Assembly: GCA_965209055.1 (NCBI GenBank)
Contig: OZ242374.1
Span: 800,001-864,000, forward strand
DNA from: Acidobacteriota bacterium
GTDB lineage: Bacteria; Acidobacteriota; UBA6911; RPQK01; JAJDTT01
Length of the DNA stretch: 64,000 nucleotides
Direction: 5' to 3'
This document shows, piece after piece, positions 14,794-38,150 of this stretch (position 1 is its first letter; the number at the start of each line of letters is the position of its first letter). Below the pieces are notes generated by a model. The model saw only the letters and a list, made by a program, of their open reading frames with translations, was not told the origin of the DNA and searched no databases. Both the position numbers and the translations under genes were made by a program.

Positions 14794-14995
14794 CTTCCCG
14801 ACAGGGATATTTTGGAAGGGAGCGACCCCCCCAGGGGGTGTGGCGCAGATGTAAATTGCGCCACACCCCCGCGCCCGCACCGGGCAGGAAAAAGGGGGGG
14901 TCGCTCCCTTCCACCTCCGCTTTCCCCGTGCGGGCACGGCGAAGCCGGGAATGTGGCCGCAACTGCATGAGCGACAAAGAGATCGGGGAAATCGC
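14794..14995 (+). ncRNA. Conserved structured non-coding motif, copy 1 (RNA or ssDNA; function unknown)
   Basis: Outer stem TGGAAGGGAGCGACCCCCC/GGGGGGTCGCTCCCTTCCA; inner stem GGGGGTGTGGCGCA/TGCGCCACACCCCC; crossing helix GCCCGCAC/GTGCGGGC. Confidence 0.5.
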
Positions 14996-15551
14996 GTGTG
15001 TAAGTAGGCAGACTCCCATGATGTAAGTTGCCCCCTTTGTCTCCCTTACACTCCTGGATCGACACGGTGTGTTGCTCTGTACCCGTCAAAATGAGGTCCC
15101 CGGCAAGCGTGTCGTCCGGCACGAGAGCGTCGCGAACGTCGTCGTCGATCTCCACGCCGGCGGCGCGATCTTCCGCCCATGGTCGCAACTCGATGGCCGG
15201 TTTCAGCGAGGCCGTGACGCTGCCATAGCCGTCGAATCGGCCCGCGTTCCTTGCAGCACACTCCGCATTTCTGGAAGAAGATTGCCTGACACGAAGGCCA
15301 ATGGAGGTCTGGCTCGGCCAGCACGAGGGCGACACCGGGAGCCAAGGAGTGCCAGACCTAGTTCCTGAACGGCGATCAGATCCAGTACGGGATTGTCTCC
15401 AGGCCCGGAACAAGATCAATTTCGATCCGCCAGATCACTCCGCCCAGCCAGCGGGGCCGTCCACAGACGCTTGTACGAGCACTGGCCCGCGGCGGCTTGC
15501 ACACCGCGCCGTTGCGCGGTGCACCGCCACGCGCTGAGGCGATCCAAACGG

Positions 15552-15700
15552 CTTCCCGCAGGGATCAATGGGACGGGAGCGACCCCCCGAGGCGATGGCA
15601 CGGAGAGTGCCCATCAGCCTGCCCCGCTTTGCCGATCCGGGAGGCAAAAAAGGGGGGTCGCTCCCGTCCACCTCCGCTTTCCCCGAGCGGCACCGCCGAG
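15552..15700 (+). ncRNA. Conserved structured non-coding motif, copy 2 (most diverged)
   Basis: Same outer stem with a C-G substitution; inner hairpin replaced by a different sequence that still pairs; crossing helix CCGCT/AGCGG. Confidence 0.45.
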
Positions 15701-15913
15701 CCGCGATCCGATCCGGAACTCGAACGGGGACAGCAGTTTAGAGAAAAGTAGCCGTGCACGTCGAAGTGGCCTCCTGGCGCACATGCCTCCCGTTGTCTCC
15801 TGTGCACTCCCCGGGCGGCACGGAACCCCACTTTCCGGCGGTCCAGTTCGAGCTCGCGGACGCCGGCTCGAACGCCAGATTACGAAGCCTGCCGGGAGGA
15901 CGACCACGGCGGA

Positions 15914-16133
15914 TCAACGGAGCCGGCCGGCTACCCGTTCCGGACTCTCGCCGGCCAGATAGTTCGCCCAGTCCACCATGAGCCGACACCGGCGCTCGAA
16001 CAGGTCCGTCCGCCGATACGCCGCCTCGACCTTGTTCTTCACCACCTGCGCCAGCGCCGCCTCGACGACCTTGCGCGGATGGTCCGTCTCCTCCTCTGCC
16101 CGGTCCCGGCACGACGACCGGAACCCGTGCGCA
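15914..16133 (-). pseudogene. 3' remnant of a second P4-like integrase
   Basis: Reads HGFRSSCRDRAEEETDHPRKVVEAALAQVVKNKVEAAYRRTDLFERR, nearly identical to the C terminus of 16800-18035. Confidence 0.85.
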
Positions 16134-16435
16134 CGGCCACGATGTCATTCTGGTGGAGTCGCCGGCGCAGCCGCATTTCTGTGGACTCGGCACCGCGTGG
16201 CGCAAGGATCCGGGACACCGAAAGGAATCAGTGGGCAGAGACGGCGACGCTTGGAGCCAAATCGTCCCCCGCCTGGATCACCGCACGCAGCATCGGCTCG
16301 TGAACCGCGATCCGATCCGATCCGGGATTGTCTCCAAGTCCGGGAAGGGGATCCTATCCGGTGCGCCAGATCACTGCCGCCGCTCCACCCGGAACGAGGG
16401 CCACGTTTCTCCACTTCATAGGGCGTTTCTTCCAC

Positions 16436-16690
16436 CTTCCCGTCAGGGATCAATTGGATGGGAGCGACCCCCCCAGGGGGTGTGGCGCAAATGTGAATGG
16501 CGCCACACCCCCGCGCCCGCACCGGGCAGGAAAAAGGGGGGGTCGCTCCCATCCACCTCCGCTTTCCCCGTGCGGGCGCGGCGAAGCCGGGAAAGTGGCC
16601 GTAACTGACTGAAAGGAAAAAAGATCGGGAAAGCGGAGTTGTGAATCGCCGGGACCGCTTTTTGTGAATCCGCCCCGCATGTCCCGTTCA
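16436..16690 (+). ncRNA. Conserved structured non-coding motif, copy 3
   Basis: Outer stem TGGATGGGAGCGACCCCCC/GGGGGGTCGCTCCCATCCA; crossing helix CCGCGCCCGCAC/GTGCGGGCGCGG; about 110 bp past the integrase stop, convergent with it. Confidence 0.5.
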
Positions 16691-16799
16691 CACTCCCGTA
16701 CGGGCACGACACGACACTTTTCAGCGGTCAAAACCGACCTCCCGGATGCCAACTCGGACGCCAGATCCCGAAGCCGGCCGGGAGGACCACCACGGCGGC

Positions 16800-18035
16800 T
16801 CAACGCCGCCGGCCGGACACCAGTTGCCGGCTCCCGCCGGCCAGATAGCCCGCCCAGTCCTCCATGAGCACGCGCCGCCGCTCGAACAGGTCCGTGCGCC
16901 GGTACGCCGCCTCCACCTTGTTCTTCACCACATGCGCCAGCGCCGCCTCGACCACCTCGCGTGGATGATCCGTCTCCTCCGCCGCCCAGTCCCGGAAACT
17001 CGACCGGAACCCGTGCGGCACGGCCGCGATCCCGTTCCGGCGCAGCAGCTTGCGCAACCGGCCGGAGCCGAGCGGCTTTCCGCCCCTTCGGGCGAAGATC
17101 AACCGGGCGGCTCCATGATCCAGCGTGCGGGCCTTCTCCAGGATCTCATTCGCCCGGCGGCACAAAGGCACCCGGTGCGCCCGTTTGGTCTTCATGCGCA
17201 TTCCGGGAACCGTCCACATCCCTTGCGCCGGATCGATCTCCGGCCATTCGGCCCACCGCACCTCGCCCCACCTCGCCGCTGTAAGCACCAGGAACTCGAA
17301 GGCCAGCAGGGACACGGGCATCGCGTTGGAGGCCCGCACCTTCCGGAGGGCCGCCCCCACCTCGCGATGCGGCAAGGCCGGCATGTGCCGCACCACGTCG
17401 TCCTGTGCTCCGAGGACCGCCACGACGCGGTCGCAGGGGTTGTCGGTCCGGTATTCCATCGCCACGGCCCACTCCAGGACCGTGCGGAGGCGCTGTCGCA
17501 CGGTCCGGGCCGTCTTCGACTTCACGTGCCAGATGGGCACCAGGATCTCCAGGACGTCGCCGCTGGTCACCTCCGAGACCGGCATCCGGCCGATGCACGG
17601 AAAGGCGTAGCGTCGAAAGCTCGCCATCCAGTCGTGGGCCTGCCTTGGATTGCGCCAGCCGGGCCGCTTCTGCTCCACCACCCGCTCGGCGGCTTCGGCG
17701 AAGGTGGGCATGGTCCGCGTGCGTCGTCTCTCGGTCAGGGGATCCCCACCTTCGCGGGCCAGCTTGCGGTTGGCCCGCGCCTTCTCGCGGGCCTCGGCCA
17801 GGGACACCAGCGCCACACCGCCGAGACCGAAGTCGCGGCGGCGACCGCGGATGACGAGGCGTTGGATCCAGCTTCGGGCTCCGTTAGGCTTGACGAAGAG
17901 GTACAGGCCGTTGCCGTCGCAGTGTTTGCCCGGTGGGGCGGAGCGGACGAACGCGGCGGAAAGGGCCTTGTGGGGGTGCCGGCCCTTCGGTTTGGATTTC
18001 CGGGGCGGAGCGGGAGAAACAGTTACATCTATCAT
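16800..18035 (-). CDS. P4-like tyrosine integrase (arm-binding DUF4102 domain plus catalytic domain)
   Basis: DGNGLYL, VSLAEAREKA, TAARWGE, MKTKRAHRVPL, HGFRSSFRDW, ALAH and catalytic AYRR. Confidence 0.95.
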   Translation of the reverse strand: MIDVTVSPAPPRKSKPKGRHPHKALSAAFVRSAPPGKHCDGNGLYLFVKPNGARSWIQRLVIRGRRRDFGLGGVALVSLAEAREKARANRKLAREGGDPLTERRRTRTMPTFAEAAERVVEQKRPGWRNPRQAHDWMASFRRYAFPCIGRMPVSEVTSGDVLEILVPIWHVKSKTARTVRQRLRTVLEWAVAMEYRTDNPCDRVVAVLGAQDDVVRHMPALPHREVGAALRKVRASNAMPVSLLAFEFLVLTAARWGEVRWAEWPEIDPAQGMWTVPGMRMKTKRAHRVPLCRRANEILEKARTLDHGAARLIFARRGGKPLGSGRLRKLLRRNGIAAVPHGFRSSFRDWAAEETDHPREVVEAALAHVVKNKVEAAYRRTDLFERRRVLMEDWAGYLAGGSRQLVSGRRR

Positions 18036-18224
18036 TACACCATAATAAACGGGAACGGGATGGATATCAAGGGATGTCAGGGGAGGACGAAACGGGGTGA
18101 GAACAGTTATAAACTTAATAAATACAACGACTTAAAAGACATTCCGGGATCTCTTTGGATTTCTCTGGATTCAATGGACATGTTGCCGTCCCCCCTACCC
18201 CCCCCCCCCCCCCCCCCCCCCCAA

Positions 18225-18250
18225 TCGGCGGTAAGAAAACCGCCGCTCCT
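18225..18250. repeat. REP-like palindrome
   Basis: CGGCGGT-AAGAAA-ACCGCCG-CTCC; same family at 30170, 30204, 34066, 39219, 45809 and 56977. Confidence 0.75.
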
Positions 18251-18254
18251 CCCC

Positions 18255-19952
18255 TCATTCGTCCCTCGTCGCTGCGATCCGCTCGATGAGCATTCCAGCC
18301 GGGTCCGGCGACGCCGCGCTGGAGCGCACCCGCAAGTAGCTCAGAGGATCGCTGTCGTTGTTCAGACGGGGCAGATCCAATGCGGTCTTGCCGTCGACCA
18401 CCACCGAGCAGCGGTTGCGATTCAGGTCCCAGGCGAGGCGGAGAGCATGCCAGCGGCCCTTGGCCAGGACCGGTCCGCCCTCGATCCTTCCAGCGGCGTC
18501 TAAATGAAGCCGGAAAACCTCCAACCGTTCGGCCGCCGGCTCAGCCGGCTGAATAAACCGGTCGGCGAGAGCGATGACTCCGCCCCCGAAGCCTTCCGGC
18601 AGCAGGACCCGGAGTGAGACCTGCCCTCGCCTTCCGGCCGGAAAGTTCCAGACCGCCTCGTCGCCGCTCTTCTCATCGGGCCGCCGCACCTGAAGCGACT
18701 TGGCGCCCTCCCGGGTGGGATGATCCACCAGCCGGGGACCCTGGACTCGGTCGCGCCAGTAGTATTCGGCGGGCCCGAAGGGCTTGAAGACGCTCCAGCC
18801 TTCCAACCCCGCCGAGAAGTCGTCCTCACGGGTGGTGGCCCCGATCCATTCCGGGTCGATGCGCACCAGGGCGATCCGGCCCTGCCCCTGACCCGTCGCC
18901 AGGATGACCTGTCCGTCACGGGTCGCCGTGGAAAACGGATAGGCGGTTCCTCGGTCGCCCCGCCGGGGAGGGGGCCGGTTGCGGTTGGGATCCCGGAAGG
19001 CCTCCCGAAATCCCTTCCAGGTCCGTCCTTCGTCGCCGGAGATGGCCACGTGGAGGGCATCGCGTGTCGTGTACACGGGCTCCCCGTCCACACGGGACGG
19101 GTTCTCGCAGTTGTTCCAGAACACCACCAGCCGGCCGTCGGGCAGGCGCAACAGGTTGGCCGGAGAGTTGGAGGAGCGGAAGCGGGTGGGCCTGGCCTCG
19201 GACCACTCGACCCCGTCCGGGGAGAACGATTCGTAGAGGAATCCTGTCTGGGTCCGGATCAACATCCAGACCCGTCCGTCCCGAAGCTGGACCGCCACCG
19301 GTTCGGTCGCGCCGTAGTTACTGCCGATGTAGCCGCTGTGGCAGGGAGAGGTGAGCCGCGCCGGCGAGAGCCGCCAGCTCCGGCCGCCGTCGTCCGAGGT
19401 GCTAGTGGTGACCACGTGGGACCCCGTGGGCGGCTCCGACCGCAATCCCGGAACCCAGAACTGGTGGGGCACTACGATCCTTCCGCTCTCGAGTTGGAGG
19501 ACCCCGTTCAGGGCGCCCACGTAGCCTTCGAAGATCCTCTTGGGATCGGACCACCGCGAGCGGCCGTCCCGCGTCGCCGCGTGCCAGATGTCGTAGAAGT
19601 AATCCACCGTCGGCGTCCGCCCGGCACCCCGCAGCACCAGCATGAAGGCGTGGAGCTCTCCCTCCCGGTCCACCAGAACCACCGGAACTCCGGCGGGATT
19701 CCTGAAGTCGAACTCGACCCGGGGCTCGCTCCAGGTGGCTCCTCCGTCGATGGAGCGGATCGAGGCGCAGTGTTTTCCGGAGACCATGTAGAGAATGCAG
19801 AGTTCGCCTCCCGGCAGCGTCACGATCGCCTTGCCGGGCGGAGACGCCTGGAGCAACACCGGCGGCTCGGCGCTCCGGACCGGAGTTTCCAGACCGACCA
19901 TGAGCAGGGTCGTCAGGAAATAATTTCGAACGATGCGGCCGGAATGGGTCAT
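18255..19952 (-). CDS. Secreted BNR/Asp-box sialidase-family protein
   Basis: Several SxDGGxTW boxes (SIDGGATW, SDDGGRSW, SGDEGRTW), EP..VQLRDG...MLIRT and AYP; signal-peptide-like start chosen at MTHSG. Confidence 0.8.
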   Translation of the reverse strand: MTHSGRIVRNYFLTTLLMVGLETPVRSAEPPVLLQASPPGKAIVTLPGGELCILYMVSGKHCASIRSIDGGATWSEPRVEFDFRNPAGVPVVLVDREGELHAFMLVLRGAGRTPTVDYFYDIWHAATRDGRSRWSDPKRIFEGYVGALNGVLQLESGRIVVPHQFWVPGLRSEPPTGSHVVTTSTSDDGGRSWRLSPARLTSPCHSGYIGSNYGATEPVAVQLRDGRVWMLIRTQTGFLYESFSPDGVEWSEARPTRFRSSNSPANLLRLPDGRLVVFWNNCENPSRVDGEPVYTTRDALHVAISGDEGRTWKGFREAFRDPNRNRPPPRRGDRGTAYPFSTATRDGQVILATGQGQGRIALVRIDPEWIGATTREDDFSAGLEGWSVFKPFGPAEYYWRDRVQGPRLVDHPTREGAKSLQVRRPDEKSGDEAVWNFPAGRRGQVSLRVLLPEGFGGGVIALADRFIQPAEPAAERLEVFRLHLDAAGRIEGGPVLAKGRWHALRLAWDLNRNRCSVVVDGKTALDLPRLNNDSDPLSYLRVRSSAASPDPAGMLIERIAATRDE

Positions 19953-20370
19953 CCCATCGTGAATCGTAGTCCACCGGAGACACGAAGTGGAATCGGAATG
20001 TCGGAGGCGAGTGGAACTGGACCGCCAACGGTGTGAACACTGTCCAGCGTGTCGGCTCAGAGATTTGCCTACTACGAAACGCAGACGGACAAGGTAAAAT
20101 CGGCCGGACAAATAATTCCAGAAGTAGTATCGCATCGACTTGCTACGGTCACCGAGGGTTTCTCCCGCAAATGTCATGTCCAATTGGGGGTAACAGGGAC
20201 AGCTTGGCCAAACGCAGCCGCAGTTTCATGGTCGAGATCGACGAAGAGTTGATCGGAGGCTATCTTGGGACAGCCTCGTCGCCTTTCGATGCCGGCGGTC
20301 GCCGGCACTGCTGCGGCAACATGGTCGACGATCGGGCAACTGAGAGCCAGAAAGAAATCCAGATAGATCA

Positions 20371-20682
20371 ATGACATCACGCATCGCCCTTCCAGAGGAA
20401 GAAATCGCTGCCTTTTGCCGGCGTTGGCGCATCATTGAATTGGCGGTGTTTGGTTCAGTGTTGCGAGACGATTTTAGTCCCGAAAGCGACGTGGATGTAC
20501 TCGTCCGCTTTGACCCGCAAGCGCGTCACACTCTTCTGGATGTTGCACAGATGCAGGACGAGTTGAGTTTGACGCTCGGCCGGGAGGCGGACTTGGTCGA
20601 GAGAGCTGCCGTCGAGCGAAGTCCAAACTACATTCGCCGCAGGGCCATTCTCCAGTCTGCCGAGATCGTATATGCGGCGTAG
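20371..20682 (+). CDS. mntA: MNT nucleotidyltransferase antitoxin
   Basis: FGSVLRDDF...SDVDVLV motif; overlaps the HEPN gene. Confidence 0.88.
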   Translation: MTSRIALPEEEIAAFCRRWRIIELAVFGSVLRDDFSPESDVDVLVRFDPQARHTLLDVAQMQDELSLTLGREADLVERAAVERSPNYIRRRAILQSAEIVYAA

Positions 20683-21013
20683 CGACGCCTATCTCCTCGA
20701 CATGTTGATGGCGGCGCGCGAGGCGAGACGATTCGCCGTGAGCCTGACGTTTCCGGAGTTCGAGCAAAACCGCATGGCGCAGCTTGCCATCTTGAAGGCA
20801 GTAGAAGTCGTTGGCGAAGCGGCGTCCCATGTGAGCGCCGAATTCAGGGCAGAACATCCGGAAATTCCCTGGTCCAAAATCATCGGAATGCGGAATCGTC
20901 TCGTCCATGGGTATTTCAGTGTCCGCCTGGAGCGGGTATGGGACACCGTGAAGCAAGACCTCCCACGTCTTATCTCCCAACTGGAACCGCTGGTCCCACC
21001 AGAAATGGAATAG
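20672..21013 (+). CDS. hepT: HEPN/DUF86 RNase toxin
   Basis: IPW..IIGMRNRLVHGY (RX4HXY). Confidence 0.9.
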   Translation: MRRSDAYLLDMLMAAREARRFAVSLTFPEFEQNRMAQLAILKAVEVVGEAASHVSAEFRAEHPEIPWSKIIGMRNRLVHGYFSVRLERVWDTVKQDLPRLISQLEPLVPPEME

Positions 21014-21092
21014 CGACTCGCACAGCAATTGATCCGTAGACCATCGGCTATTGCCAGGTAGATCCGATCGAAAACTGGAGCCATTTCCACAG

Positions 21093-21947
21093 TCAGTTGT
21101 CGGATTTCGTGCAGCCGATCCGCGTCAAGGGTATGAACCGAGGTGTCGAGGCTTGGTAGTCGCGGTACGCGGGGTATCGATCCAGAGATATGGATTCGGT
21201 CAATCTTGTCGACCCGCCAAAGATGAACATCAGGAAAATGAATCCCAGGCTGGACCAATGGATCCATTGGCCGGTTGCCGCGACCCCGAACAGGTAGAAC
21301 ACGGTCCACATGCCCATCTCGCAGACAAAACTGGGATGGCGGCAGTACCGGAACAAGCCGCTGTTGACGAAGGGCTGCGTCACGGGTTCACCCGCCTCGA
21401 TCCTGCGCTTCTTGTCCTGCTGAAACGTCCACATCTGCTGGTCGTTGATCGCTTCCACGACCCAAAACGCCACGAACAGTGCCATCGCGGCGGCATCCAG
21501 GACATTCAGGGGCCGATCCTGCCGGGTCCAGGCCTGATGCACCGGAGACGTGAACAGCCAGATGACGAGCAACTGCCCGGGTGCGACGAAGGTGAGATTG
21601 AGGATTTGAAACTTGATCGGACCAAGCTGTTCCCGCAGGGCTTTCCAGCGATAGTCTTCACCGCCGCGCCGATACCCGCCCTTGCGAGCCAGATTGAAGG
21701 TCAATCGGACCCCCCACGCAAAAACCAGGAGCGCCATGACGTTGAGCCGCGCCGAACCGAAGTCCGAGTCGGCGGCCACCATCAGGCAATAGATGGGGGG
21801 ACAGACGGTCCAGATGCGGTCCACCCAGGAATATTCGCGGGTGATGACCGACAAGAGCCAGCAGGCGATGGCGAGAACCACCGTCAGGTCGAGGGCTGCT
21901 CCGTACGGAGTGCCCTGAAGCGGATGGGAAATGAGGTTGATGTCCAT
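21093..21947 (-). CDS. DUF1295 / steroid 5-alpha-reductase-like membrane protein
   Basis: YSWVDRIW, WGVRLT, GEDYRW, GLFRYCRHP and Y..YQ..TPRFIP. Confidence 0.88.
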   Translation of the reverse strand: MDINLISHPLQGTPYGAALDLTVVLAIACWLLSVITREYSWVDRIWTVCPPIYCLMVAADSDFGSARLNVMALLVFAWGVRLTFNLARKGGYRRGGEDYRWKALREQLGPIKFQILNLTFVAPGQLLVIWLFTSPVHQAWTRQDRPLNVLDAAAMALFVAFWVVEAINDQQMWTFQQDKKRRIEAGEPVTQPFVNSGLFRYCRHPSFVCEMGMWTVFYLFGVAATGQWIHWSSLGFIFLMFIFGGSTRLTESISLDRYPAYRDYQASTPRFIPLTRIGCTKSDN

Positions 21948-21998
21948 TGACCTGATCTTTTTGGCCCGGGCTGGACCCGGAGCGCCGTTTTTCGGCTG

Positions 21999-23522
21999 CT
22001 ATCGGAACCTCAGGGAGTAGAGATCCGCGTCCTTCATCACCAGGCGCAGGCGCACCGGATTCCCGGCGAGGCGCCGGAGAGGCCTGTCCGAAATCGCTTT
22101 GCGGTGACTTCGCTCCCACCGGACCACCTGCTCGATCTCGTCCCCCCAGATCAGCGGCGACTCCTCCAGGGAGAACCCGGGAACGGGGTGGCCGCGGACA
22201 TCCTGTATCTCCACCCGGATGCTGCCGGCGGCCGAGGTGGCGAAGTTGAGGACCAGGTTGTCCCCCTCGAAGAGCAGCGGTTTGGTGATCATTTCGCCGC
22301 CGGACCAGCCGGCGTGGACCGAGACGAACCCATCGGTGCGCAGCACCAGCCGCTGCAGGTGGTTGGTGGGCGCCGAGCGGTGACGCTCGACGTAGAGGGA
22401 GATTTCGTCCTCGGCGGTGGGGACGATGCCCCGCGCCGGCGTATTGGTCCGCTGCGGCCAGTTGCGCGGGTCGCGGCCGGGCCGGATGAACGACTCCAGG
22501 AAGCGGCGGTCCCAGCGGACCCCGTCGCGGCTGCTCATGAGGACTCCGTCGGACGCGCCCGGCACCGGAGCGTCCGGGTAGAGCTGCCGCCAGGGGAGAA
22601 AACGTCTCGGCAGAGCCAGAAAGAGGTGCGGGGCGCGGAAATAGGCGACGGTCCCGTTGGTGTAGAGGTGTTCCGGAGGAGTGTCTCCGAAGTCGCCCCA
22701 CTGCCCGGCCGTCCAATCCAGAAAATTCGCCGAGGTGGCGTGCTTGATGGTTCGCACGCCGTGGCGGAAGTCGCGGTAGAAGGCGACGTAGCGGTTTCGC
22801 ACCGAGTCCCAAAAGGTGACGTTCAGGGAATCGAATTTCCCGTCGGTGAGAAGCGGCTCCTCCCGCAGGCGCTTCCAGCGGATGCCGTCCGGGGAGACGT
22901 AACCCAGCAGCACCGGTTGTCCGTCCATCCGGCCGCTGCCCACGGCCTTGTAGCGCTGCTCGGGAGGGGCGTCGGGATTGGTGTCCTTGAAGGGGGAGAA
23001 GTTGTGCCCGCCGGAGCCGGTCCAGACGATGTTGTTGTCCGTGGAGCCGTTGAACTCGAACCGGCCGAGCGACGGTCGGGTCCAGATGATCCCGTCACGA
23101 CTCTCGGCGTAGCAGGCCACCTGGGGGTGATCCGGCACGGACGTTTCACCCGGCCTCAAAAGGGAGGGGACCGCGTATCCCCTGGAGCTGGCGCCCCGGT
23201 AGTACATGCGGTAACGGCCGCCGTCCCGGAACACGGTGACGTAGCCGCTGTTTCCCCCTTCCCATTCCCGGTCGAAGAAGAGAACCCGCTCCGCCGGTCG
23301 GGGAGAGTGAAGCTTCAGCCGCGCTCCCTTCAGCGACTCGATGAGGTGGCCGTCCACGAACAATTCGAGCCGGGAGCCGATGGACAGGGAGTCGGGCTGC
23401 GTCTTCCGAGAGGGCTCGGCACCCGCGGCGAGGGCCACGGAAACAAGACAGGCGGCCATCGGTGCCGCCCTCATCGTTCCTCTTCCGTTCCGCCGAGGAA
23501 CTTCCATGGGTTCGGAATCCAT
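21999..23522 (-). CDS. Secreted beta-propeller hydrolase-like protein (paralog 2; true start probably ~23474-23459)
   Basis: RLELFVD, YRMYYRG, YAESRDGIIW, SPDGIRW and LRTDGFVS; signal peptide. Confidence 0.75.
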   Translation of the reverse strand: MDSEPMEVPRRNGRGTMRAAPMAACLVSVALAAGAEPSRKTQPDSLSIGSRLELFVDGHLIESLKGARLKLHSPRPAERVLFFDREWEGGNSGYVTVFRDGGRYRMYYRGASSRGYAVPSLLRPGETSVPDHPQVACYAESRDGIIWTRPSLGRFEFNGSTDNNIVWTGSGGHNFSPFKDTNPDAPPEQRYKAVGSGRMDGQPVLLGYVSPDGIRWKRLREEPLLTDGKFDSLNVTFWDSVRNRYVAFYRDFRHGVRTIKHATSANFLDWTAGQWGDFGDTPPEHLYTNGTVAYFRAPHLFLALPRRFLPWRQLYPDAPVPGASDGVLMSSRDGVRWDRRFLESFIRPGRDPRNWPQRTNTPARGIVPTAEDEISLYVERHRSAPTNHLQRLVLRTDGFVSVHAGWSGGEMITKPLLFEGDNLVLNFATSAAGSIRVEIQDVRGHPVPGFSLEESPLIWGDEIEQVVRWERSHRKAISDRPLRRLAGNPVRLRLVMKDADLYSLRFR

Positions 23523-29348: not shown

Positions 29349-29372
29349 GGCGATTCTTCTCCCGGCAAATGT

Positions 29373-30086: not shown

Positions 30087-30097
30087 TTGGTCTCCTT

Positions 30098-30255
30098 GGA
30101 GGGGGGACCGTCTTGTCCCCCTTCGTCCTTATTCCCGGTCCTGCTCCGGGTCGTTAATGCACCGGAGTTCGGCGGTTAGGAAACCGCCGCCCCTCAGGGA
30201 GTTCGGCGGTTAGGAAACCACCGCTCCGGCCGGAAGGGCGATTTCCTAATCGCCC
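30098..30255. repeat. REP-like cluster with two 34-bp-period copies of GGAGTTCGGCGGTTAGGAAACC(G/A)CCGC
   Basis: Direct copies at 30164 and 30198 plus flanking GGGGGAC/GTCCCCC and GGGCGAT/ATCGCCC hairpins. Confidence 0.75.
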
Positions 30256-32342
30256 GGTCCCCCCCGTTCGCCGACCGATTCCAACAAGGCGCCGGATGCG
30301 GTGCGGATCCTGTCGAAGACGACCCGGTCCTTCGCCGCCAGCCGGGCCAAGTCTTCCAGATCGTACCAGCGGAGCGCTCCGTGGACCGTATTCTCGAGTT
30401 GATCCACGGTGACGTCGGTTTCGACGACGCGCCGCCAACTGTCGATGGAGTCCCGGATGCCGATCCGGCCAAACAGCTCCGGCTCCACGGCCGCGGCATG
30501 CAGGGCGGCAACCCCCGCCCTTCCCACGGCGACCAGGTTCACTCGCTTCGCCTCCTCGGTCGCTACGCGCAGGTAACGCGCGCAGGCGAGTATGTCCTCA
30601 GCCCGCATGCCAACCAGTGAACGTCCCAGCATGTAGGCGATGAAATACTCTGCCGAGTTGTTTCCGATGTATTTCGGGTCGTACCGCCACGCCGTGGACT
30701 CGGTCTCCCCCAAGCCGGTCAGATCCACGGCCAGCACCGGATGCCCGCCGCGCGCCAGCGACTCTATGGGCCCTCCGGGACCCGCGTCGACCTGCTTGCC
30801 CCGCCCGTTCAGGTACAGCGTCCACTCGCTTCGCGAGCGTTCGGGAACGAACCGCAGCACCGGCAGTGGAAACCCGCCGGCGGACTGCAGGATCAACTTC
30901 TCGATGCGGTAACCGGTGCGCCGGACCGTACCGTACGTTTGGACTGCCAGTGGCGGGATCTCCGAGAGGGGACGGATGCCCGCGGTTTCCCTCACCTTGG
31001 TTCGTCGCTCCCTGCCGGTCATTTGCTGCCACGACCGCTCGCGATGCCGCCGGAGCCTCTCCTCCTCGGCACGGTAGAGTTGGAACACCGAGCGTGCGCC
31101 CTCCAGCAACAGAACCTGCCCCTGGGGCGTGCATTGAAGCTGCCGGTCGGAGAAGACGTCGAAGTCCGGCTCGTTCACCTCGTCGACCCGGTTCAGCAGC
31201 CACCGACGCATCCAGCGGCAGGCGCCGGTGCGCAGATGGAGGGAGAATCCGTGCTTCTCGTCCGCCTCCACCAGGCCGACCCGCTCCGCGACGCCCAACC
31301 GCGTGTAGAGCCGTTTGGCTTGCCGGTACGTCTCCCAGGCGCCCGCAATGGGCACGAAGTCCTTGGTGGCGGCAAGAATCAACGCAGGCTTAGGCGCTCT
31401 CATCAGGATGTAGTCCGCGTGGTCCATGCCGTAAGCGGTCTGTGCGTAGATGTTCTGCTCGGCGTCGCCCGGACCGGGGTCGTCGTTCTTGCGGCGGGTG
31501 GTGGTGATGAAACAACTGGACGCCGCAGCGGCGATCCTCGGATCGAGCGCCATCAGGTAGGCGGTCATGAGGCCGCCGCCCGAGTTTCCGGTGCAGCCGA
31601 TGCGCGACTCGTCGACGTCGTCCCGTCCCGCCAGGTAATCGATGCTGCGGATCCCGTCCCAGATGCGATAGGTAGCCAGGTTCCGGCCCAGCAAAATGGG
31701 GGCGACGCCGGCCAGGTTGTGTTCTTCGGTGGGCCGAAACCGCCCCTTCGCGGTCTCCGACCGTGCCGCGCCGTCCTCGAGAATCTGCTTCCGCTCCCCT
31801 TGGCCGACGGGGTCGTAGCAGAGCACCGCCAGACCGTTCCTGGCCATCAGGATGGCCGCCCGCTGGTAGAGTTCGGCCGCCTTTCCGTTCTCGCTGTGGC
31901 CGCAGGGGACCAGGACGCCGGGGTACGGCGGTTCGGCCTCCGGCAGGTACAGGACCGCCGTCACGTGGAAGCCGGGCCGGCTCTCGTAGATCAGCTTTTC
32001 GGCTCGAAACCCGTCGCCCGTCAGCCGGCCCACGACTCGGGGACGCAGGGGAGTGCGTTCCGGGAATCCCCCCAGGCTTTCGATGAATTCGGCTCGCAGG
32101 CGTTCCTGGTAGTCCCGGATCTGCTCCGGGGTCTTCAGCGCTTCGTACGCCTGCAGACGCCGGTCCAGCGCGGCGTGGACGAGTGGCCGGAGATGATCCT
32201 GAAGCAACCGGACTTCGCCGTCCGGCTGTGCCGATGCCGGCAGCACCCGGAGATCGGTCCCGAGCGCGATTTCGGGCGTCAGGGTCCAGACAAGAACGAC
32301 AAGGAGTATGCGGGCTGTGCTGGGCGCTGGGCTGGATAACAC
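30246..32342 (-). CDS. Acetylxylan-esterase-like double alpha/beta hydrolase
   Basis: LVPCGHS, YDPVGQGER, nucleophile GNSGGG and GDAEQN; second domain DLTGLGE; signal peptide. Confidence 0.85.
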   Translation of the reverse strand: MLSSPAPSTARILLVVLVWTLTPEIALGTDLRVLPASAQPDGEVRLLQDHLRPLVHAALDRRLQAYEALKTPEQIRDYQERLRAEFIESLGGFPERTPLRPRVVGRLTGDGFRAEKLIYESRPGFHVTAVLYLPEAEPPYPGVLVPCGHSENGKAAELYQRAAILMARNGLAVLCYDPVGQGERKQILEDGAARSETAKGRFRPTEEHNLAGVAPILLGRNLATYRIWDGIRSIDYLAGRDDVDESRIGCTGNSGGGLMTAYLMALDPRIAAAASSCFITTTRRKNDDPGPGDAEQNIYAQTAYGMDHADYILMRAPKPALILAATKDFVPIAGAWETYRQAKRLYTRLGVAERVGLVEADEKHGFSLHLRTGACRWMRRWLLNRVDEVNEPDFDVFSDRQLQCTPQGQVLLLEGARSVFQLYRAEEERLRRHRERSWQQMTGRERRTKVRETAGIRPLSEIPPLAVQTYGTVRRTGYRIEKLILQSAGGFPLPVLRFVPERSRSEWTLYLNGRGKQVDAGPGGPIESLARGGHPVLAVDLTGLGETESTAWRYDPKYIGNNSAEYFIAYMLGRSLVGMRAEDILACARYLRVATEEAKRVNLVAVGRAGVAALHAAAVEPELFGRIGIRDSIDSWRRVVETDVTVDQLENTVHGALRWYDLEDLARLAAKDRVVFDRIRTASGALLESVGERGGPGD

Positions 32343-32458
32343 GAACCCGAATCCTCACAGGAATTGTGTCTGCGGTCAAACGACTTCAGAATGCGGTTCG
32401 CGGGGTTCCACAGTCTGTGGAGAAAGCCCCGCCCGGGACCGGGAGCGAAGGAAGGGGA

Positions 32459-34075
32459 ATGAAAGCGGACAGCGGGAAAGCGCACGATATCGACGTTCTC
32501 ATCGTCGGAGGGGGGCACAATGGGCTGGTCGCCGGAAGTTACCTGGCGCGGGCCGGCCTGGAGGTCCAGGTCCTGGAGCGGCGGTCCATGGTCGGCGGGG
32601 CCTGCATCACCGAGGAGCTCTTTCCCGGTTTCCACTTCTCCAGTTGCTCCTTCATGCTCTACGCGCTGCACCCCAAGGTTGCGGACGACCTGGAACTGCA
32701 CCGATACGGTCTCCAGGTCTTTCAGGTCGATCCCTTCCTGTTTCGCCCCTACCCCGACGGCCGGCGCCTGGTGCTGCACCAGGACCCGGAACGCAACGCG
32801 GAAGCCATCGGCGCGTTCTCCCGCCGGGACGCGGAGAGCTACCGGCGATGGAACCGGTTGTGGGAACGGTTCCATTCCATCGTGCACGCTTACGTGCTCA
32901 CGCCCCCTCCCGCCTACGTCGATCTGGTGAGGAGGGCCAGGGAGACGGGCAACCTCGAGATCTTCAAGAAAGTCCTGATCACCAGCCACGCCGACCTGGT
33001 CGAGGAGTTCTTCGAGTCGGATCACGTCCGGGCCGCCATGATCCATTCCGGAGACCATGGCGACCCCCGGTCCATCGGAAGCGCCCTGCCGGCGGCCTTC
33101 CTGCCGGGCGACGTGGCACCCGAACGGCGGATCGTGGGCATCGTCAAGGGAGGAATGGGCGCGGTCACGCGGGCCATGGCCGCTTACCTGGAAAGCCAGG
33201 GCGGCGCCATTCGCACCGGGTGCCAGGTCCGCCGCGTCCTGGTGGAGGACGGCCGCGCCCGGGGTGTCGAACTGACCAGCGGAGAGACGATCCGAAGCCG
33301 CTTGGTCGTCTCCAACGCCGACCCCAAGCGCACCTTCCTGGACCTGGTCGAACCGGAACATCTCCCCCCGGGCTTCTGCGGTAGGGTCCGCGGCCGGCGG
33401 ACCGAGATCGGGTACTTCAAGTTCCACGCCGCCATGGATGAATTGCCCGACTTTTCCTCCTGGCTGGGAAGGGACTACGATCCGCGAATCACGGCCCGCG
33501 TCTGGATCTGCCCCTCCATCGAATACGTGCGGCGCGCCTGGCGGGACGCCCGGCGGGGCCGTCCTTCGAGGCAGCCCGTCATGTCGATCCAGATCCCCTC
33601 CGTCTACGACGACAGCATCTGCCCGCCGGGCAAGCACGTCCTGTCCATCTTCGCCGAATACGCGCCGGTCCGTCCGGCCCGGGGCAATTGGGATGAACGC
33701 CGGGAGGAGGCCGGAGAGCGGCTGATTGACGCGGTGACGGCGTATGCGCCCAACTTTCGTCGTGCTATTGCAGACTGGATGCTCTTGACGCCTCTGGACC
33801 TGGAACGCCGCGTCTACCTGACCGCCGGCAACATCCACCACCTGGACATGACGCCGAGCCAGGTCTTCTCCCGCCGGCCGCTCACGGGCTGGGCCGAGTA
33901 CCGGACCCCCGTCGAGGGCCTGTGGCTCTGCGGCGCCGGCACCCACCCGGGCGGCGAGGTCTCGGGAGCGCCCGGTCACAACGCGGCCCACGCCATCTTG
34001 CGGGATCTTCGGAGGGGCGATTCCCAATCGCCCGGTTCCCCCTCGTTTGCTGATGTCGAAAGAACCGGCGGTTAG
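32459..34075 (+). CDS. Phytoene-desaturase-family FAD oxidoreductase (PYROXD2-like)
   Basis: IVGGGHNGLVA, GGMGAV, TPLDLE, GNIHH and LCGAGTHPGGEVSGAPGHNAA. Confidence 0.9.
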   Translation: MKADSGKAHDIDVLIVGGGHNGLVAGSYLARAGLEVQVLERRSMVGGACITEELFPGFHFSSCSFMLYALHPKVADDLELHRYGLQVFQVDPFLFRPYPDGRRLVLHQDPERNAEAIGAFSRRDAESYRRWNRLWERFHSIVHAYVLTPPPAYVDLVRRARETGNLEIFKKVLITSHADLVEEFFESDHVRAAMIHSGDHGDPRSIGSALPAAFLPGDVAPERRIVGIVKGGMGAVTRAMAAYLESQGGAIRTGCQVRRVLVEDGRARGVELTSGETIRSRLVVSNADPKRTFLDLVEPEHLPPGFCGRVRGRRTEIGYFKFHAAMDELPDFSSWLGRDYDPRITARVWICPSIEYVRRAWRDARRGRPSRQPVMSIQIPSVYDDSICPPGKHVLSIFAEYAPVRPARGNWDERREEAGERLIDAVTAYAPNFRRAIADWMLLTPLDLERRVYLTAGNIHHLDMTPSQVFSRRPLTGWAEYRTPVEGLWLCGAGTHPGGEVSGAPGHNAAHAILRDLRRGDSQSPGSPSFADVERTGG

Positions 34076-34090
34076 GAAACCGCCGCTCCT
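34012..34090. repeat. REP-like palindromes overlapping the gene end
   Basis: GGGCGATT-CCC-AATCGCCC and CGGCGGTTAGGAAACCGCCGCTCC. Confidence 0.65.
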
Positions 34091-34104
34091 GCTGGAGGCC
34101 GCCC

Positions 34105-35559
34105 ATGCCCCGTCCCAATCTTCTGGTGCTGATGACCGATCAGCAGCGAGCCGACACCGTGGGTCCCGCCTCTCCCTGCCGGACCCCCCACCTGGACGCC
34201 CTGGCTGCTCAGGGAACCCGGTTTCTCCGTGCCTACTCTTCCAACCCCATCTGCTCGCCCAGCCGGGCGAGCCTGATGACGGGGCTCCTGCCCCACAGCC
34301 ACGGGATGGTCGACTGCACCCATACGGTGGAGCCCTATCGCGCCGACCTGAAGCCGGGACTCCCCTTCTGGAGCCGGGAGCTTCGGGGCGCCGGGTATCG
34401 CACCGGCTACTACGGGAAATGGCACATCGAGCGCTCCAATCGGCTGGAGGATTTCGGATTCGATTCGTACGAGCTGATGGAGAGCTTCGAGGCGGCCGAT
34501 GTGGGATGCCAACGGGTTCCCGACGCCGGCTACCTGGCGCGCCGCCGGAGCCTGGGACTCCCCGAATCGGATCGCCGCTGGGAACGCAAGGGGATGGTTC
34601 GCCATCCCGGATACCGGGACCTGTTGCTGCACGGCGTCGTGGACGAGCCCGTGGAGGGAACCCGCGAGCACCACGTCTTCTCGCGCGGGATCGATTTTCT
34701 GAATGAACCGGCCCGCGGCGACCAACCGTGGTGCCTCTTCCTGAGCACCGCCGGTCCTCACGATCCCTACGTCGTGCCGCGGGAATACCGTCGCCGCTAC
34801 GACGCCCGTTCCCTGATGCCTCCCCCCAGTTTCCAGGACGATCTGGCCGGCCGTCCCGCCATCTACCGGCGGATGCGGAGCGTGTGGGACCAGATGCGGT
34901 GGTCCGATTTCGCCGAGGCCACCGCCTGCTACTACGCCTTCTGTTCCCTCGTCGACGACCAGATCGGGAGGATTCTGAGGGTCCTGGAGGAGACGGGCCA
35001 GTCGGAGAATACGCTGGTGCTGTTCCTGTCGGACCACGGTGACTACATGGGAGCCCACCGTCTGATGCTCAAGGGGGTCCCCGCCTTCGAGGAGGCTTAT
35101 CGCGTGCCCCTGATCCTGAAAGGTCCCGGGGTGAATCCGGGACAGGAGGTCCCCGAGATCGTCAGTCTGCTGGACGTGGCGCCGACCCTGACGGAGCTGA
35201 CGCTGGGAGAGGACTTCTCCTGCCACGGGCGGTCGCTGCGTCCGCTGTTGGAGGGGGACGGATCCGGCTGGGACTCGGAAGCCTACGCCGAAATGCAGGG
35301 CCAGAGAATGGCGTACACGCAACGGGTTCTCTGGAGAGACAACCACAAGTACGTCTTCAATGCCTTCGACGAAGACGAGGTCTACGACCTGGAACAGGAT
35401 CCCCACGAACTGCGCAACCTGGCCGGAAGCCGCGAGTCCCTGTGCCGGGAGATGGCGGCTCGGATGTGGGAAATCGCCCGAGCCACCGGCGACTACAACC
35501 TCTACGAGTCCCAGTACGGCTGCTTCCGCTGGGCGCCCGTGGGACCGGAGGCGCGCTAG
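34105..35559 (+). CDS. Cys-type sulfatase (S1 family)
   Basis: DQQR, CSPSRASLMTG, GKWH, PHDP, SDHGD and E.YDL..DP.E..NLA. Confidence 0.93.
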   Translation: MPRPNLLVLMTDQQRADTVGPASPCRTPHLDALAAQGTRFLRAYSSNPICSPSRASLMTGLLPHSHGMVDCTHTVEPYRADLKPGLPFWSRELRGAGYRTGYYGKWHIERSNRLEDFGFDSYELMESFEAADVGCQRVPDAGYLARRRSLGLPESDRRWERKGMVRHPGYRDLLLHGVVDEPVEGTREHHVFSRGIDFLNEPARGDQPWCLFLSTAGPHDPYVVPREYRRRYDARSLMPPPSFQDDLAGRPAIYRRMRSVWDQMRWSDFAEATACYYAFCSLVDDQIGRILRVLEETGQSENTLVLFLSDHGDYMGAHRLMLKGVPAFEEAYRVPLILKGPGVNPGQEVPEIVSLLDVAPTLTELTLGEDFSCHGRSLRPLLEGDGSGWDSEAYAEMQGQRMAYTQRVLWRDNHKYVFNAFDEDEVYDLEQDPHELRNLAGSRESLCREMAARMWEIARATGDYNLYESQYGCFRWAPVGPEAR

Positions 35560-35565
35560 GAGGGG

Positions 35566-35607
35566 GGACTGTTAGTCCGACGCTCTGTCCAACTGAGCTA
35601 CGGGATT
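35566..35607 (-). pseudogene. tRNA 5' half (acceptor 5' strand, D-arm, anticodon stem) at the att end of element 2
   Basis: AATCCCG-TA-GCTC-AGTTGGACA-GAGC-G-TCGGA-CTAACAG-TCC; no T-arm or CCA follows. Confidence 0.75.
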
Positions 35608-35627
35608 GATCCTTTCCTTTCAACAGG

Positions 35628-36734
35628 TTATCCCGATGCTCCTCTCAAATCGTTCCTCCTATTTCCTCCCCGTTGCCTGTTTGTTGCCGGTCTCATTTGT
35701 GAGTCTTCGGTAGCCTGTGCCTCCCGAATGCTGGCAAGCGCATGCGAACTGACGTACCCCGCGTAGCGCATCGTCGTGCTGATCGAGGAGTGGCCCATCA
35801 GCTTCTGCACCGTCCTCACGTCCACCCCCTGCATCAGCCAATGGCTGCACCGGAATCGTCTCAGGTCGTGAAATCCGACCTTCAACCCCACCCGCTCGGT
35901 GGCCCGGCGCAACGGCTTGTCCGGATTCACCCATCTCGTGCCGGTTCGGGTGTTGACAAAGACATATGGGGTGCTCAGGTAGCGAACCAGCCCGGTCAGG
36001 TATCCTGCGGCGTACTTCGACAGCGGGATCTCCCTCGTCTCGTCGTTCTTGGTGAATTCCACCCATAGCAGCCTCCGGGATAGATCCACCCGTTTCCAGG
36101 TGAGCGACAACGCTTCGCCTTTCCGAATCCCCGTCTCGCCGATCACGGCGATCATGGCTTGCAGGTAAGGGTTGTCCATCGCCTCGACCAGGTCGCGGAA
36201 CTGTTGAACCGTCAAGGGCCGGAAGACCTTCTTGGGTTCTTTGAGTTTGGGGAATCTCACCAGCGGGTGCGTGTCCACTTCCCCGCACTCCAGCGCGTAG
36301 GAAAACAGCTTGCTGATGGCGGCAATGTCCCGGTTCACCGTGGCCGGCTGCACTTGCTTCTTTCTCCTGGCGACGTAGCGGTACAGGTCCTTGCGTTGGA
36401 ACTCCTTCAGGGGAATGTTCCCCAGCATGGCGTTGAGGCTCTTGAACGAGAGCGCATAGCGGCGGCGGGAGCGCATGCGAGGTTTGCAATACTCCTCGAA
36501 GAAACGCTCGTAGAAGCTCCGGACCGTCCAGACGGTGCGGTTCCCGCCGGCGAGCTCCTCCTTGAGCTGCTTCCAGGTGCCGTCCAGGATGCTCGACTCG
36601 ATTCGTGTTTGAAGCGCCTGTGCGCTCCGGTAGTTGGGGGCGTACATTCGGAGCCGACCGGATCCGTTCGGCCAGTACTTGCTGACGACGTACCGTCGTC
36701 TCCCCCGGCGATCCTTCACCTTGTAGATGCCCAT
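35628..36734 (-). CDS. Tyrosine recombinase/integrase, divergent from the P4-like one
   Basis: AGGAGG RBS; PATVNR, TGIRKGE, TKN, FHDLRR, LMGHSSISTTMRY. Confidence 0.93.
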   Translation of the reverse strand: MGIYKVKDRRGRRRYVVSKYWPNGSGRLRMYAPNYRSAQALQTRIESSILDGTWKQLKEELAGGNRTVWTVRSFYERFFEEYCKPRMRSRRRYALSFKSLNAMLGNIPLKEFQRKDLYRYVARRKKQVQPATVNRDIAAISKLFSYALECGEVDTHPLVRFPKLKEPKKVFRPLTVQQFRDLVEAMDNPYLQAMIAVIGETGIRKGEALSLTWKRVDLSRRLLWVEFTKNDETREIPLSKYAAGYLTGLVRYLSTPYVFVNTRTGTRWVNPDKPLRRATERVGLKVGFHDLRRFRCSHWLMQGVDVRTVQKLMGHSSISTTMRYAGYVSSHALASIREAQATEDSQMRPATNRQRGGNRRNDLRGASG

Positions 36735-36800
36735 GCATCTCCTCCTTTCTGGATCCGGGTTCTTCGCCGTGGGGCGAATCGTACCACGGCTCCAGAGAAC

Positions 36801-37880
36801 GGACCGGTGGGACCTGTCCCCCCAGACCCCCCAGTGGCGCCAGAACCCGCGCCGGATCACCATTCCGGCGCTGAACCGGGCGCTTTTATTTGTCGCGTCC
36901 CATAAGAATGGGTCCCTCGCGCAGGATTCCCGCCGCGTCTCTCGCAGGCTTCCCGGTCGGAGCAAATCTGTCCCCGGCCGAGGTGTCGCTTGAAACCCCC
37001 TCAGGCGGGAATTCTCGTGAGATCGTGAAAAAACAAGCCCGCCATCTGGCCTGTGTTGGCCCGCCGCAGCCGGACGAAGGGTTAGGTATAGGCCCCGGAG
37101 CGTCGTCCAGAAGCCTCCGGCGCGGCGCCGGGAAACAGGCAATTCTCAGCACGGGCGCAGCCCGTTAGGTAGTCCATGAGATCCGGAGCTCGGGCGATCG
37201 GCAAGACGCGATCCTGCTTCCAGAACTCAGCCTGATGGTGAAGACGGCTGACGTCATCCGATCTTCTTGAGTAGAATCTGATGGAAGTGGGTCAATCGAA
37301 AGCAGGCCAGGGAGGCAAAGCAGATGCGCTCAGACCACACCCCCCCCCCCACCATGCTCAGGATGGTCGTTGCCGTCGTCATCGGACTGATTGTGTTCGA
37401 GGTGGTGGCGGCGCTGTATCAGGTCGTCGCCGGGTTCTTTCTGGCGGCTTTCTGACGTCTTGCCGGGTTTTCGGCCCCAAGAGCAATCCAAAATCACGGC
37501 GATGGTAGCCGGTCGGGCCAAGGGTTCCACCTCGATGGCCAGGCCGACATGGAAAGCGTCCTCGGTTCTGGCGATCCAGGGGAGAAAGTAAATTGCACCG
37601 GTGGGGCTGGGGGCTTGAGAGATCGGTGGCAACACTGAACTGGAGGCAAAACGACGCACCCTGTGGGAAATCTCTGATTTTCCACACGGTGGGGAGGTTC
37701 GTTGAGACGAGGCTCGATCCCTCTTTGGAGAGTTCTTTGGTGGGTATGTGTCTCTTCGCATCCGGGGGGTTCGGGGGGGCTGGCCCCACCGCTACGAGCG
37801 TCAGGTTCACGGTCGGCTTGGTGTGCCGAACGGGGTTCAGGCGCACCAGGGGGGTCTGGGGGGACAGGTCCACCCGGTCC
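36801..37880. repeat. ~55-bp diverged inverted repeat pair (36801-36860 / 37822-37880)
   Basis: GGACCTGTCCCCCCAGACCCCC and its reverse complement GGGGGTCTGGGGGGACAGGTCC with similar flanks. Confidence 0.7.
37324..37455 (+). CDS. 43-aa hydrophobic small protein with an internal C11 tract (below the ORF-track cutoff)
   Basis: GGAGG at 37311-37315; MRSDHTPPPTMLRMVVAVVIGLIVFEVVAALYQVVAGFFLAAF; possible promoter CTGACG-18-TAGAAT. Confidence 0.55.
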   Translation: MRSDHTPPPTMLRMVVAVVIGLIVFEVVAALYQVVAGFFLAAF

Positions 37881-37897
37881 TCGGTCTTCTTCCGGGC

Positions 37898-38150
37898 CTT
37901 CCCGCAGGGAGAATTGAGACGGGAGCGACCCCCCCAGGGGGTGTTGCGCAAATGTGAATTGCGCAACGCCCCCGCGCCCGCACCGGGCAGCAAAAAGGGG
38001 GGGTCGCTCCCGTCCACCTCCATTTTCCCCGTGCGGCCACCCGGTGGCCGGGAATGGGGCCGTAACTGACTGAAAGGAAAAAAGATCGGGGAGAGTGAAT
38101 TTGTGAGTCACCGGGACCGCTTTTTGTGAATCCACCCCCTTTGTCCCATT
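37898..38150 (+). ncRNA. Conserved structured non-coding motif, copy 4 (in element 2)
   Basis: Colinear with copy 3 over ~250 nt; inner stem GGGGGTGTTGCGCA/TGCGCAACGCCCCC has a compensatory T-A pair and a T.G wobble. Confidence 0.5.

Follow-up and report, generated by a model that had tools for sequence, protein, structure and literature searches.

A covarying hairpin unit beside coupling-protein genes as a candidate origin of transfer in Acidobacteriota

Why does a bacterial chromosome keep many copies of a strongly folded, non-coding sequence next to integrase genes and remnants of conjugation genes? This question is raised by a stretch of 64,000 nucleotides (nt) from an Acidobacteriota bacterium (contig OZ242374.1 of assembly GCA_965209055.1, positions 800,001 to 864,000; hereafter the window), in which a sequence-only reading had noticed a structured motif in four copies. 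Described on the minus strand of the window, the repeated unit is called R′. The results presented here suggest that R′ may be the origin of transfer (oriT) of a family of integrative conjugative elements, which is also kept by mobilisable islands encoding only an integrase. Judged from the sequence evidence, we give this interpretation about an even chance of being correct.

A repeat search within the window yielded a 269-nt repeat family at 14793-15061, 16435-16703 and 37896-38164 with 75-78% identity, and shorter conserved blocks revealed a shorter fourth copy at 15552-15699. Repeat search and alignment thus confirmed the four copies at their proposed places. Four, however, is the count for the window only. 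The genome, a single contig of 6.08 Mb to which the window belongs, holds 64 blastn matches and 69 units, the latter defined as genome matches to a pattern of outer stem and tail. Genome blastn extended the unit to a length of up to 278 nt; one border is sharp at 16435, the other lies near 16712. Tandem arrangements resembling that of copies 1-3 were found at at least four further places in the genome. Moreover, the motif occurred in eight of eight genomes of the same genus and in two genomes from other families of the order (12 of 41 searched genomes, the own genome included). An exact-match scan with the two arms of the outer stem, restricted to one genome per species, gave at least 90 stretches. 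Among the matches listed were records from Acidobacteriota (Terriglobia, Vicinamibacterales, Versatilivoraceae and Aminicenantes), Gemmatimonadota (Longimicrobiales) and Latescibacterota. Some repeat variants in records titled Acidobacteriota are almost identical to the window copies, which suggests that the organism itself is a member of this phylum. Most of the DNA runs holding 29-47% of the sampled words are labelled sponge metagenome, which hints at the habitat.

R′ starts with a motif region of about 180 nt, followed by a segment designated U and the opening arm of the outer stem. A T run, hairpin A and the long hairpin B come next, before the stem closes and is followed by a tail hairpin. 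The outer stem comprises 19 base pairs (bp; 14-19 bp across records) with an invariant inner part of 14 bp, and the tail hairpin consists of 3-4 bp (CCC-TGC-GGG) followed by AAGG. Hairpins A and B are wholly different in sequence between lineages, and folding produced exactly two hairpins within the outer stem in 147 of 159 distinct cores. The calculated fold of copy 3 has an energy of -147.9 kcal/mol (z = -7.6 on the plus and -6.2 on the minus strand), which was reached by none of 200 shuffles of either strand. In an alignment of 45 sequences from several phyla, outer stem and tail hairpin were 96.4% paired. The covariation score of this alignment was 0.159 compared with 0.066 in shuffled alignments, none of 500 shuffles scored as high, and both-sided changes occurred in 41 cells of outer stem and tail compared with 10.3 in the shuffles. 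The individual changes proposed from the four copies were all recovered from the sequences. One pair of the outer stem reads A-T in copy 1 and T-A in copy 3, and copies 2 and 4 both have C-G. The inner stem changes from G-C to T-A and acquires one T.G in copy 4 and is a different hairpin in copy 2. The inner length ranges from 52 to 76 nt and does not vary in steps of three, in agreement with a non-coding motif.

A third helix crossing the outer stem had likewise been proposed. It gained support from 70 representatives, 18 of which showed complementarity of at least 9 nt compared with 4.7% of 4512 mismatched pairings. Segment U, which is located outside the outer stem, is complementary to hairpin A over its loop and 3′ arm; the two partners change together (GCCCGCAC/GTGCGGGC, GCCGCAC/GTGCGGC, GCCGCGCCAGCGG/CCGCTGGCGCGGC and CCGATGCCGATC/GATCGGCATCGG). 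The helix crosses the outer stem and excludes hairpin A.

The T.G wobble in copy 4 had been taken as an indication that the plus strand folds. Larger counts conflict with this view. Outer stem and tail of the 45-sequence alignment contain 15 wobble cells on the minus strand versus 9 on the plus strand, whereas the inner hairpins of the 70 representatives contain 3 on the minus and 11 on the plus strand. Due to this conflict, the single T.G decides no strand. On the minus strand, the inner hairpins have 18 pyrimidine-pyrimidine and 4 purine-purine mismatches. What stands of the proposed selection on a single-stranded structure is a folded or palindromic architecture under selection.

The region of about 180 nt contains a 7-nt motif with a spacing of 23 nt, present twice in direct and once in inverted orientation and located 86-138 nt from the outer stem. 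The motif variant tracks the loop of hairpin B. In copies 3 and 4 the set reads TGTGAAT. Copy 1 has TGTAAGT/TGTAAAT, and a GTGCAC-like sequence occurs in an intact island elsewhere in the genome. Across lineages, loop 6-mers recurred upstream 2.2 times in the own locus as opposed to 0.59 times in mismatched loci. To judge from these sequences, the joint change of motif and loop is the behaviour that sites for one DNA-binding protein would display.

The genes around R′ belong to conjugation clusters. In a Longimicrobiales record, TrbL/VirB6 and VirB8 are followed by a protein of 310 amino acids (aa) termed OrfU, R′, a 679-aa coupling protein carrying the domains TrwB_AAD_bind and TraG-D_C, and a VirB11-type ATPase. 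The intact island of the own genome, at 1.826-1.846 Mb, contains ArdC, a coupling protein, R′, OrfU, TrbL, TrbI, a VirB4-like ATPase, a TrbC pilin and a primase-helicase. The own genome has one full coupling-protein gene with a diverged R′ directly before it; most of its other units are left with remnants of OrfU or of the coupling protein. The coupling proteins of the two phyla (G000:C1:1830012-1832045 in the own genome and L098:3717-5756 in Longimicrobiales) are 70% identical and the OrfU proteins 54%, which suggests a fairly recent exchange of elements between phyla.

Full-length OrfU precedes R′ in at least 27 external loci. In the own genome, tblastn detected OrfU in six full copies and in about 30 fragments, the majority of which immediately precede units. 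An OrfU homologue is present within 600 nt upstream of 31 of the 69 own units (5 full-length) and of 37 of 83 external units with sufficient room, and a coupling-protein homologue lies downstream of 8 own units (1 full-length) and 14 of 85 external units. Eleven own units are followed by a small zinc-ribbon open reading frame (ORF), and nine are without OrfU, coupling protein, zinc-ribbon ORF or either of the tyrosine integrase genes intA and intB as neighbours. The median identity of 900 random pairs of the 69 units was 0.81 in the core, 0.65 in the preceding 180 nt and 0.51-0.55, equivalent to background, in the flanks. This difference indicates that the unit is kept while its neighbours decay or are replaced. 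A by-eye inspection of the OrfU recognition helix revealed no clear tie to the motif class.

A location in front of the coupling-protein gene might also reflect a function as RNA. The unit would then form a structured 5′ leader in transcripts of the coupling-protein operon, possibly together with an antisense partner, and would control translation or the fate of the transcript, with the third helix acting as a switch and the tail hairpin masking GGAAGG as ribosome-binding site. In FinP/traJ-type control of transfer genes, an antisense or leader RNA likewise derives from a structured region directly before a key transfer gene, which overlaps a possible ribosome-binding site. Since orfU and the coupling-protein gene have the same direction, the unit is probably transcribed through. 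Furthermore, all four helices covary, including the one that excludes hairpin A, and in many contexts a start codon is positioned 5-50 nt after the tail hairpin. An RNA-library contig of 189 nt covered 16531-16670, weakly, at a depth of 4.7 and with 16 differences. In contrast to FinP/traJ, the unit is far larger and remains intact where the coupling-protein gene is gone or swapped for unrelated genes. The most conserved letters reside in a stem rather than in loops or junctions, the phased motifs that change together with a hairpin loop resemble protein sites on DNA, and wobble pairs point to no consistent strand. Promoter-like or terminator-like sites were detected on neither strand. Taken together, we regard a leader RNA as unlikely, although the competing third helix and the position of the tail hairpin before a start codon would also be compatible with an RNA switch.

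With promoter-like and terminator-like sites lacking, a ribozyme or a free-standing non-coding RNA gene, which had been one half of the original proposal, found no support. The other half, a single-stranded DNA origin, oriT or packaging signal used in trans, is favoured in its oriT form by the location between OrfU and coupling protein and by the retention of the unit without transfer genes. A search of the whole window against Rfam gave no family at the gathering threshold and nothing meaningful at E-value thresholds. The best sub-threshold match reached 31.9 bits compared with a cut-off of 53.1 and concerned a plastid 3′UTR family. Contigs of four RNA runs over 16200-17300, which provide neither strand nor ends, showed heavy cover on a conserved integrase stretch present in many organisms, and low and patchy cover of the unit. 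A more elaborate scenario is that the unit gives rise to a structured RNA of about 130-280 nt with a switch helix, which would work with OrfU as a guide or regulatory partner and direct or gate how DNA is processed for type IV secretion; dozens of genomic copies could provide it in trans. We consider this very unlikely; if true, OrfU would be the protein half of a new RNA-protein conjugation module in Acidobacteriota and Gemmatimonadota.

Several known classes of structured elements were compared with the unit and rejected. Bridge-RNA and omega-RNA do not fit the neighbouring genes, which are integrases, OrfU and coupling protein and not IS110 or TnpB genes. A retron non-coding RNA was dismissed as the scanned neighbours gave no reverse transcriptase hit and the downstream gene is a coupling protein, a zinc-ribbon ORF or another gene. 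An integron with attC sites was dismissed because copies 1-3 are separated by fragments of integrase and coupling protein and not by cassettes.

The anticipated link to integrase elements was found throughout the genome. The P4-type integrase gene intA lies beside 22 of the 69 units, upstream on the same strand within 2.5 kb, and 25 units are located in islands that end in intB, found downstream within 20 kb. About 27 copies of intB exist in the genome. For 19 of 27 copies a direct repeat of at least 12 nt was present within 26 kb, and 17 of these 19 repeats enclose a unit. The island containing copy 4 measures 3.5 kb (35565-39107) and comprises intB, a tRNA-like piece, an unassigned ORF, the unit and an OrfU remnant. 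With its integrase and end repeats and without mating-pore genes, it has the properties of an oriT-only mobilisable element. Joining of its outer flanks yields a palindromic target, GAGGGGGGACTGTTAGTCCCCCTC. The tRNA-like piece, which follows intB in 27 of 27 copies examined, is 92.9% identical over 28 nt to positions 4-31 of the own tRNA-Arg(ccg) (E = 2e-7). It was called by neither Rfam nor ARAGORN, and ARAGORN predicted no tRNA in the window. At 27 places, the intB islands (2.7-20 kb) are inserted in palindromic GGGGGGACT-NNN-AGTCCCCCC hairpins and not in tRNA genes. Some islands have GTT as the 3-nt centre of this target and others AAC, as though it had been inverted. On the minus strand, copies 1-3 make up a tandem remnant with the order intA, unit, coupling-protein stub, intA stub, unit, unit. 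The coordinates of all features are given in Table 1.

Table 1. Coordinates of the R′ copies, their substructures and associated features in the window.
Feature	Position	Strand	Details
Copy 3, full unit	16435..16712		Repeat search, alignment, folding, genome blastn
Copy 3, tail hairpin	16435-16450	+	Plus-strand coordinates
Copy 3, outer stem	16456-16474 with 16536-16554	+	Plus-strand coordinates
Copy 3, hairpin B	16476-16512		Loop TGTGAAT at 16492
Copy 3, hairpin A	16515-16527		
Copy 3, third-helix partner	16570-16577		
Copy 3, repeated motif	16640, 16663, 16686		TGTGAAT at 16640 and 16663, inverted at 16686; spacing 23 nt
Copy 1	14794..15061		Same core as copy 3
Copy 1, outer stem	14814-14832 with 14894-14912		
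Copy 1, repeated motif	14999, 15022, 15045		Motif class other than in copy 3: direct TGTAAGT (14999, 15022), inverted copy (15045); loop TGTAAAT at 14850
Copy 2, diverged	15552..15810		Hairpins A and B are other sequences
Copy 2, outer stem	15571-15588 with 15652-15669		
Copy 2, repeated motif	3′ to about 15810		GTGCAC-like motifs (by-eye reading)
Copy 4, full unit	37896..38174		
Copy 4, outer stem, 3′ arm	37997-38015		
Copy 4, hairpin B	37937-37973		
Copy 4, repeated motif	38102, 38125, 38148		
intA, P4-type tyrosine integrase, 411 aa	16800..18035	-	Pfam Arm-DNA-bind_3, Phage_int_M, Phage_integrase
Second intA copy, C-terminal fragment	15917..16129	-	Residues 341-411; between copies 2 and 3; tblastn
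Coupling-protein N-terminus remnant	16150..16425 (approximate)	-	About residues 21-89; directly after copy 3
OrfU remnant	38271..38474	-	Residues about 126-193; directly before copy 4, within small ORF 38200-38490; tblastn
intB, second tyrosine integrase, 504 aa	35628..37142	-	Pfam Phage_integrase; far end of copy 4 island
tRNA-Arg 5′-half-like piece	35579..35622	-	After intB; ends in anticodon-like stem-loop
Left 14-bp direct repeat	35565..35578	+	GGGACTGTTAGTCC; island end
Right 14-bp direct repeat	39094..39107	+	Island end; repeated sequence stops at about 39110
Cargo after copies 1-3	3381..13612	-	C5 DNA methylase, HATPase_c_3, Z1, DUF4420, AIPR; defence-type cluster

The proximity to integrase genes raises the possibility that the unit is their attachment or recombination site, or a miniature transposable element that spreads by itself. 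The stop codon of intA is about 90 nt away from copy 3, and a unit follows intA at about this distance in at least eight places. Hairpin B resembles a 13-bp inverted repeat with a spacer, tandems like that of copies 1-3 exist elsewhere, and in four own copies another element has inserted at a fixed point of the tail. In contrast, the intB islands recombine at the anticodon-like GGGACTGTTAGTCC, with the unit 0.7-9 kb inside, and the unit is found in conjugation clusters without an adjoining integrase. Its flanks are not random targets but repeatedly show the remains of one gene set, with orfU on the upstream side and either the coupling protein or a zinc-ribbon ORF on the downstream side; target duplications did not undergo a formal search. 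This explanation is highly improbable.

The tail hairpin is interrupted at one fixed point, after CGG, in the own genome (G000:C1 near 1583530, 3165140, 3375002 and 4508894) and in the external loci L050, L051, L084, L091, L099, L106, L111, L116 and L119. In the own genome, the insert is a conserved non-coding sequence of about 500 nt that starts with ACTGTTTCTATAA and has no Rfam match, while inserts in other phyla are different sequences starting with A(C/A)T. At seven places, a second diverged unit together with an OrfU fragment is located back to back with the unit, between the unit and intA (e.g. G000 69627-70706, 577226-578307 and 1600391-1601477). Units seem to be hot spots of rearrangement or nested insertion.

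The architecture could alternatively serve another step in the life cycle of the DNA, either as a single-strand origin or priming site for the complementary strand, or as a replication origin of the excised circle used by the primase-helicase that the intact island encodes. Single-stranded DNA could adopt the nested hairpins, and repeats spaced by 23 nt next to a gene for a winged-helix protein resemble iteron origins. However, the region is GC-rich and lacks an AT-rich unwinding region, priming alone gives no explanation of why integrase-only islands keep the unit, and the spot beside the coupling-protein gene is the position of an oriT. We therefore rate a replication site as distinctly unlikely.

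Known oriTs are described as lying near relaxosome genes and containing inverted repeats (PMC5587640). R′ adjoins the coupling-protein gene in VirB6/VirB8/VirB11 or TrbL/TrbI/TrbC clusters and combines nested, covarying inverted repeats with the 7-nt motif at 23-nt spacing. In the proposed mechanism, OrfU or another protein of the element would bind the phased motifs as well as the same motif within the hairpin B loop. Once the DNA is single-stranded or extruded, the nested inverted repeats would fold. One strand would then be cut and taken over by the coupling protein, and the type IV secretion system would export it. Islands with only R′ and an integrase, such as the 3.5-kb island of copy 4 and the island of copies 1-3 with its defence cargo, could excise and travel by means of the transfer machinery that an intact element supplies. 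They would thus represent mobilisable islands with an oriT and without a relaxase.

OrfU is predicted to consist of a winged-helix domain and a small alpha/beta domain. The AlphaFold model, with a predicted local distance difference test (pLDDT) value of 84, has an N-terminal winged helix that gave MarR-, HlyU- and CadC-type hits over about 90 residues (probability about 1, E = 0.02-0.1). The second domain was modelled with a pLDDT of 76. Its Foldseek hits were non-significant (E at least 0.16) and included many PD-(D/E)XK nucleases; the PD...(D/E)xK motif was not seen in the alignment. The OrfU family comprises at least 4159 unnamed database proteins, and comparisons with PDB sequences, the protein atlas, PLSDB (tblastn), NCBIfam and Replic_Relax profiles assigned it to no family.

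Several observations weigh against an oriT. No relaxase of a known family was found, in agreement with the earlier remark that neither element has a recognisable Rep or relaxase gene. The relaxase families PF03432 and PF13814 had no match in the own genome, and 19 ORFs of the intact island, which was annotated non-exhaustively, gave no Pfam relaxase hit. OrfU itself matched neither a Pfam family (16 members, E up to 10) nor an NCBIfam family, its hhalign probability against members of Replic_Relax was 0.2, and the structure search for a nuclease fold was non-significant (best E-value 6.5e-3 with the whole protein, 0.16 with the domain). Neither the motif nor OrfU was found in any PLSDB plasmid, and the motif was also without a match among viral contigs. 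Finally, the wobble counts disagree on the folding strand, the GGAAGG of the tail could be a ribosome-binding site, and a third helix that competes with hairpin A forms a switch more familiar from regulatory RNAs than from oriTs. The tail sequence ATCCCTGC resembles the IncP-type nick region. This resemblance was set aside and not used as evidence, given the covariation of the tail hairpin and the lack of a MOBP relaxase.

Among known systems, plasmid pAD1, whose MOBC-type system has the relaxase TraX and a TraG-like protein, offers a parallel for an oriT of this kind. Its oriT contains a large inverted repeat beside short direct repeats. TraX is described as having an N-terminal winged helix and a restriction-endonuclease-type domain; it binds five direct repeats, at a distance of 70-120 bp from the nick site (PMC12857230). 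Similarly, a predicted winged-helix protein, OrfU, is encoded beside the unit, the phased motifs are located 86-138 nt from the outer stem, and the coupling-protein gene is adjacent. In contrast to MOBC relaxases, OrfU shows no similarity to the Replic_Relax profile and a nuclease fold is hinted at by non-significant Foldseek hits. Moreover, the hosts are Acidobacteriota and Gemmatimonadota, and the core includes a crossing third helix.

Integrative mobilisable elements that have an oriT and lack a relaxase form an established class (PMC11389934). Like these iOriT elements, the islands described here combine an integrase and terminal direct repeats with cargo and the unit, and are devoid of secretion genes. 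They differ by their number, since 69 units are a very high copy number for one genome, and their mobilisation is putative. Many copies are accompanied by orfU or coupling-protein fragments, so that some are decayed conjugative elements rather than dedicated hitchers.

In the remainder of the window, the AIPR match of the defence-type cargo is divided between the ORFs 5526-6650 and 3381-5504. Since the genome contains about 23 repeats of the stretch 4409-5440, the AIPR gene may be interrupted by a repeat. The region between copies 3 and 4 encodes ordinary-looking chromosomal genes (BNR protein, symporter, peptidase, oxidase and sulfatase). It also includes a stretch, 22014-23357, that is repeated 12-27 times in the genome and overlaps an ORF of 507 aa without a Pfam family (21999-23522, minus strand); this may be an unclassified insertion sequence. 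A small intergenic hairpin repeat, CGGCGGTTAGGAAACCGCCG, is located at 18226-18257, 30170-30201, 30204-30235 and 34066-34097 and also near several ends of intB islands elsewhere.

A survey from 2012 states that nothing was known on conjugation in Acidobacteria and similar diderm phyla (PMC3548315), and our literature search retrieved no description of the site reported here. If R′ is indeed an oriT, it would provide a searchable signature for a conjugative family common to Acidobacteriota, Gemmatimonadota and Latescibacterota, and its core, with a competing third helix, would contain a possible switch. OrfU would be a candidate for a new relaxase or relaxosome protein. Moreover, such an oriT would explain the mobility of many small integrase islands with defence cargo in a single genome.

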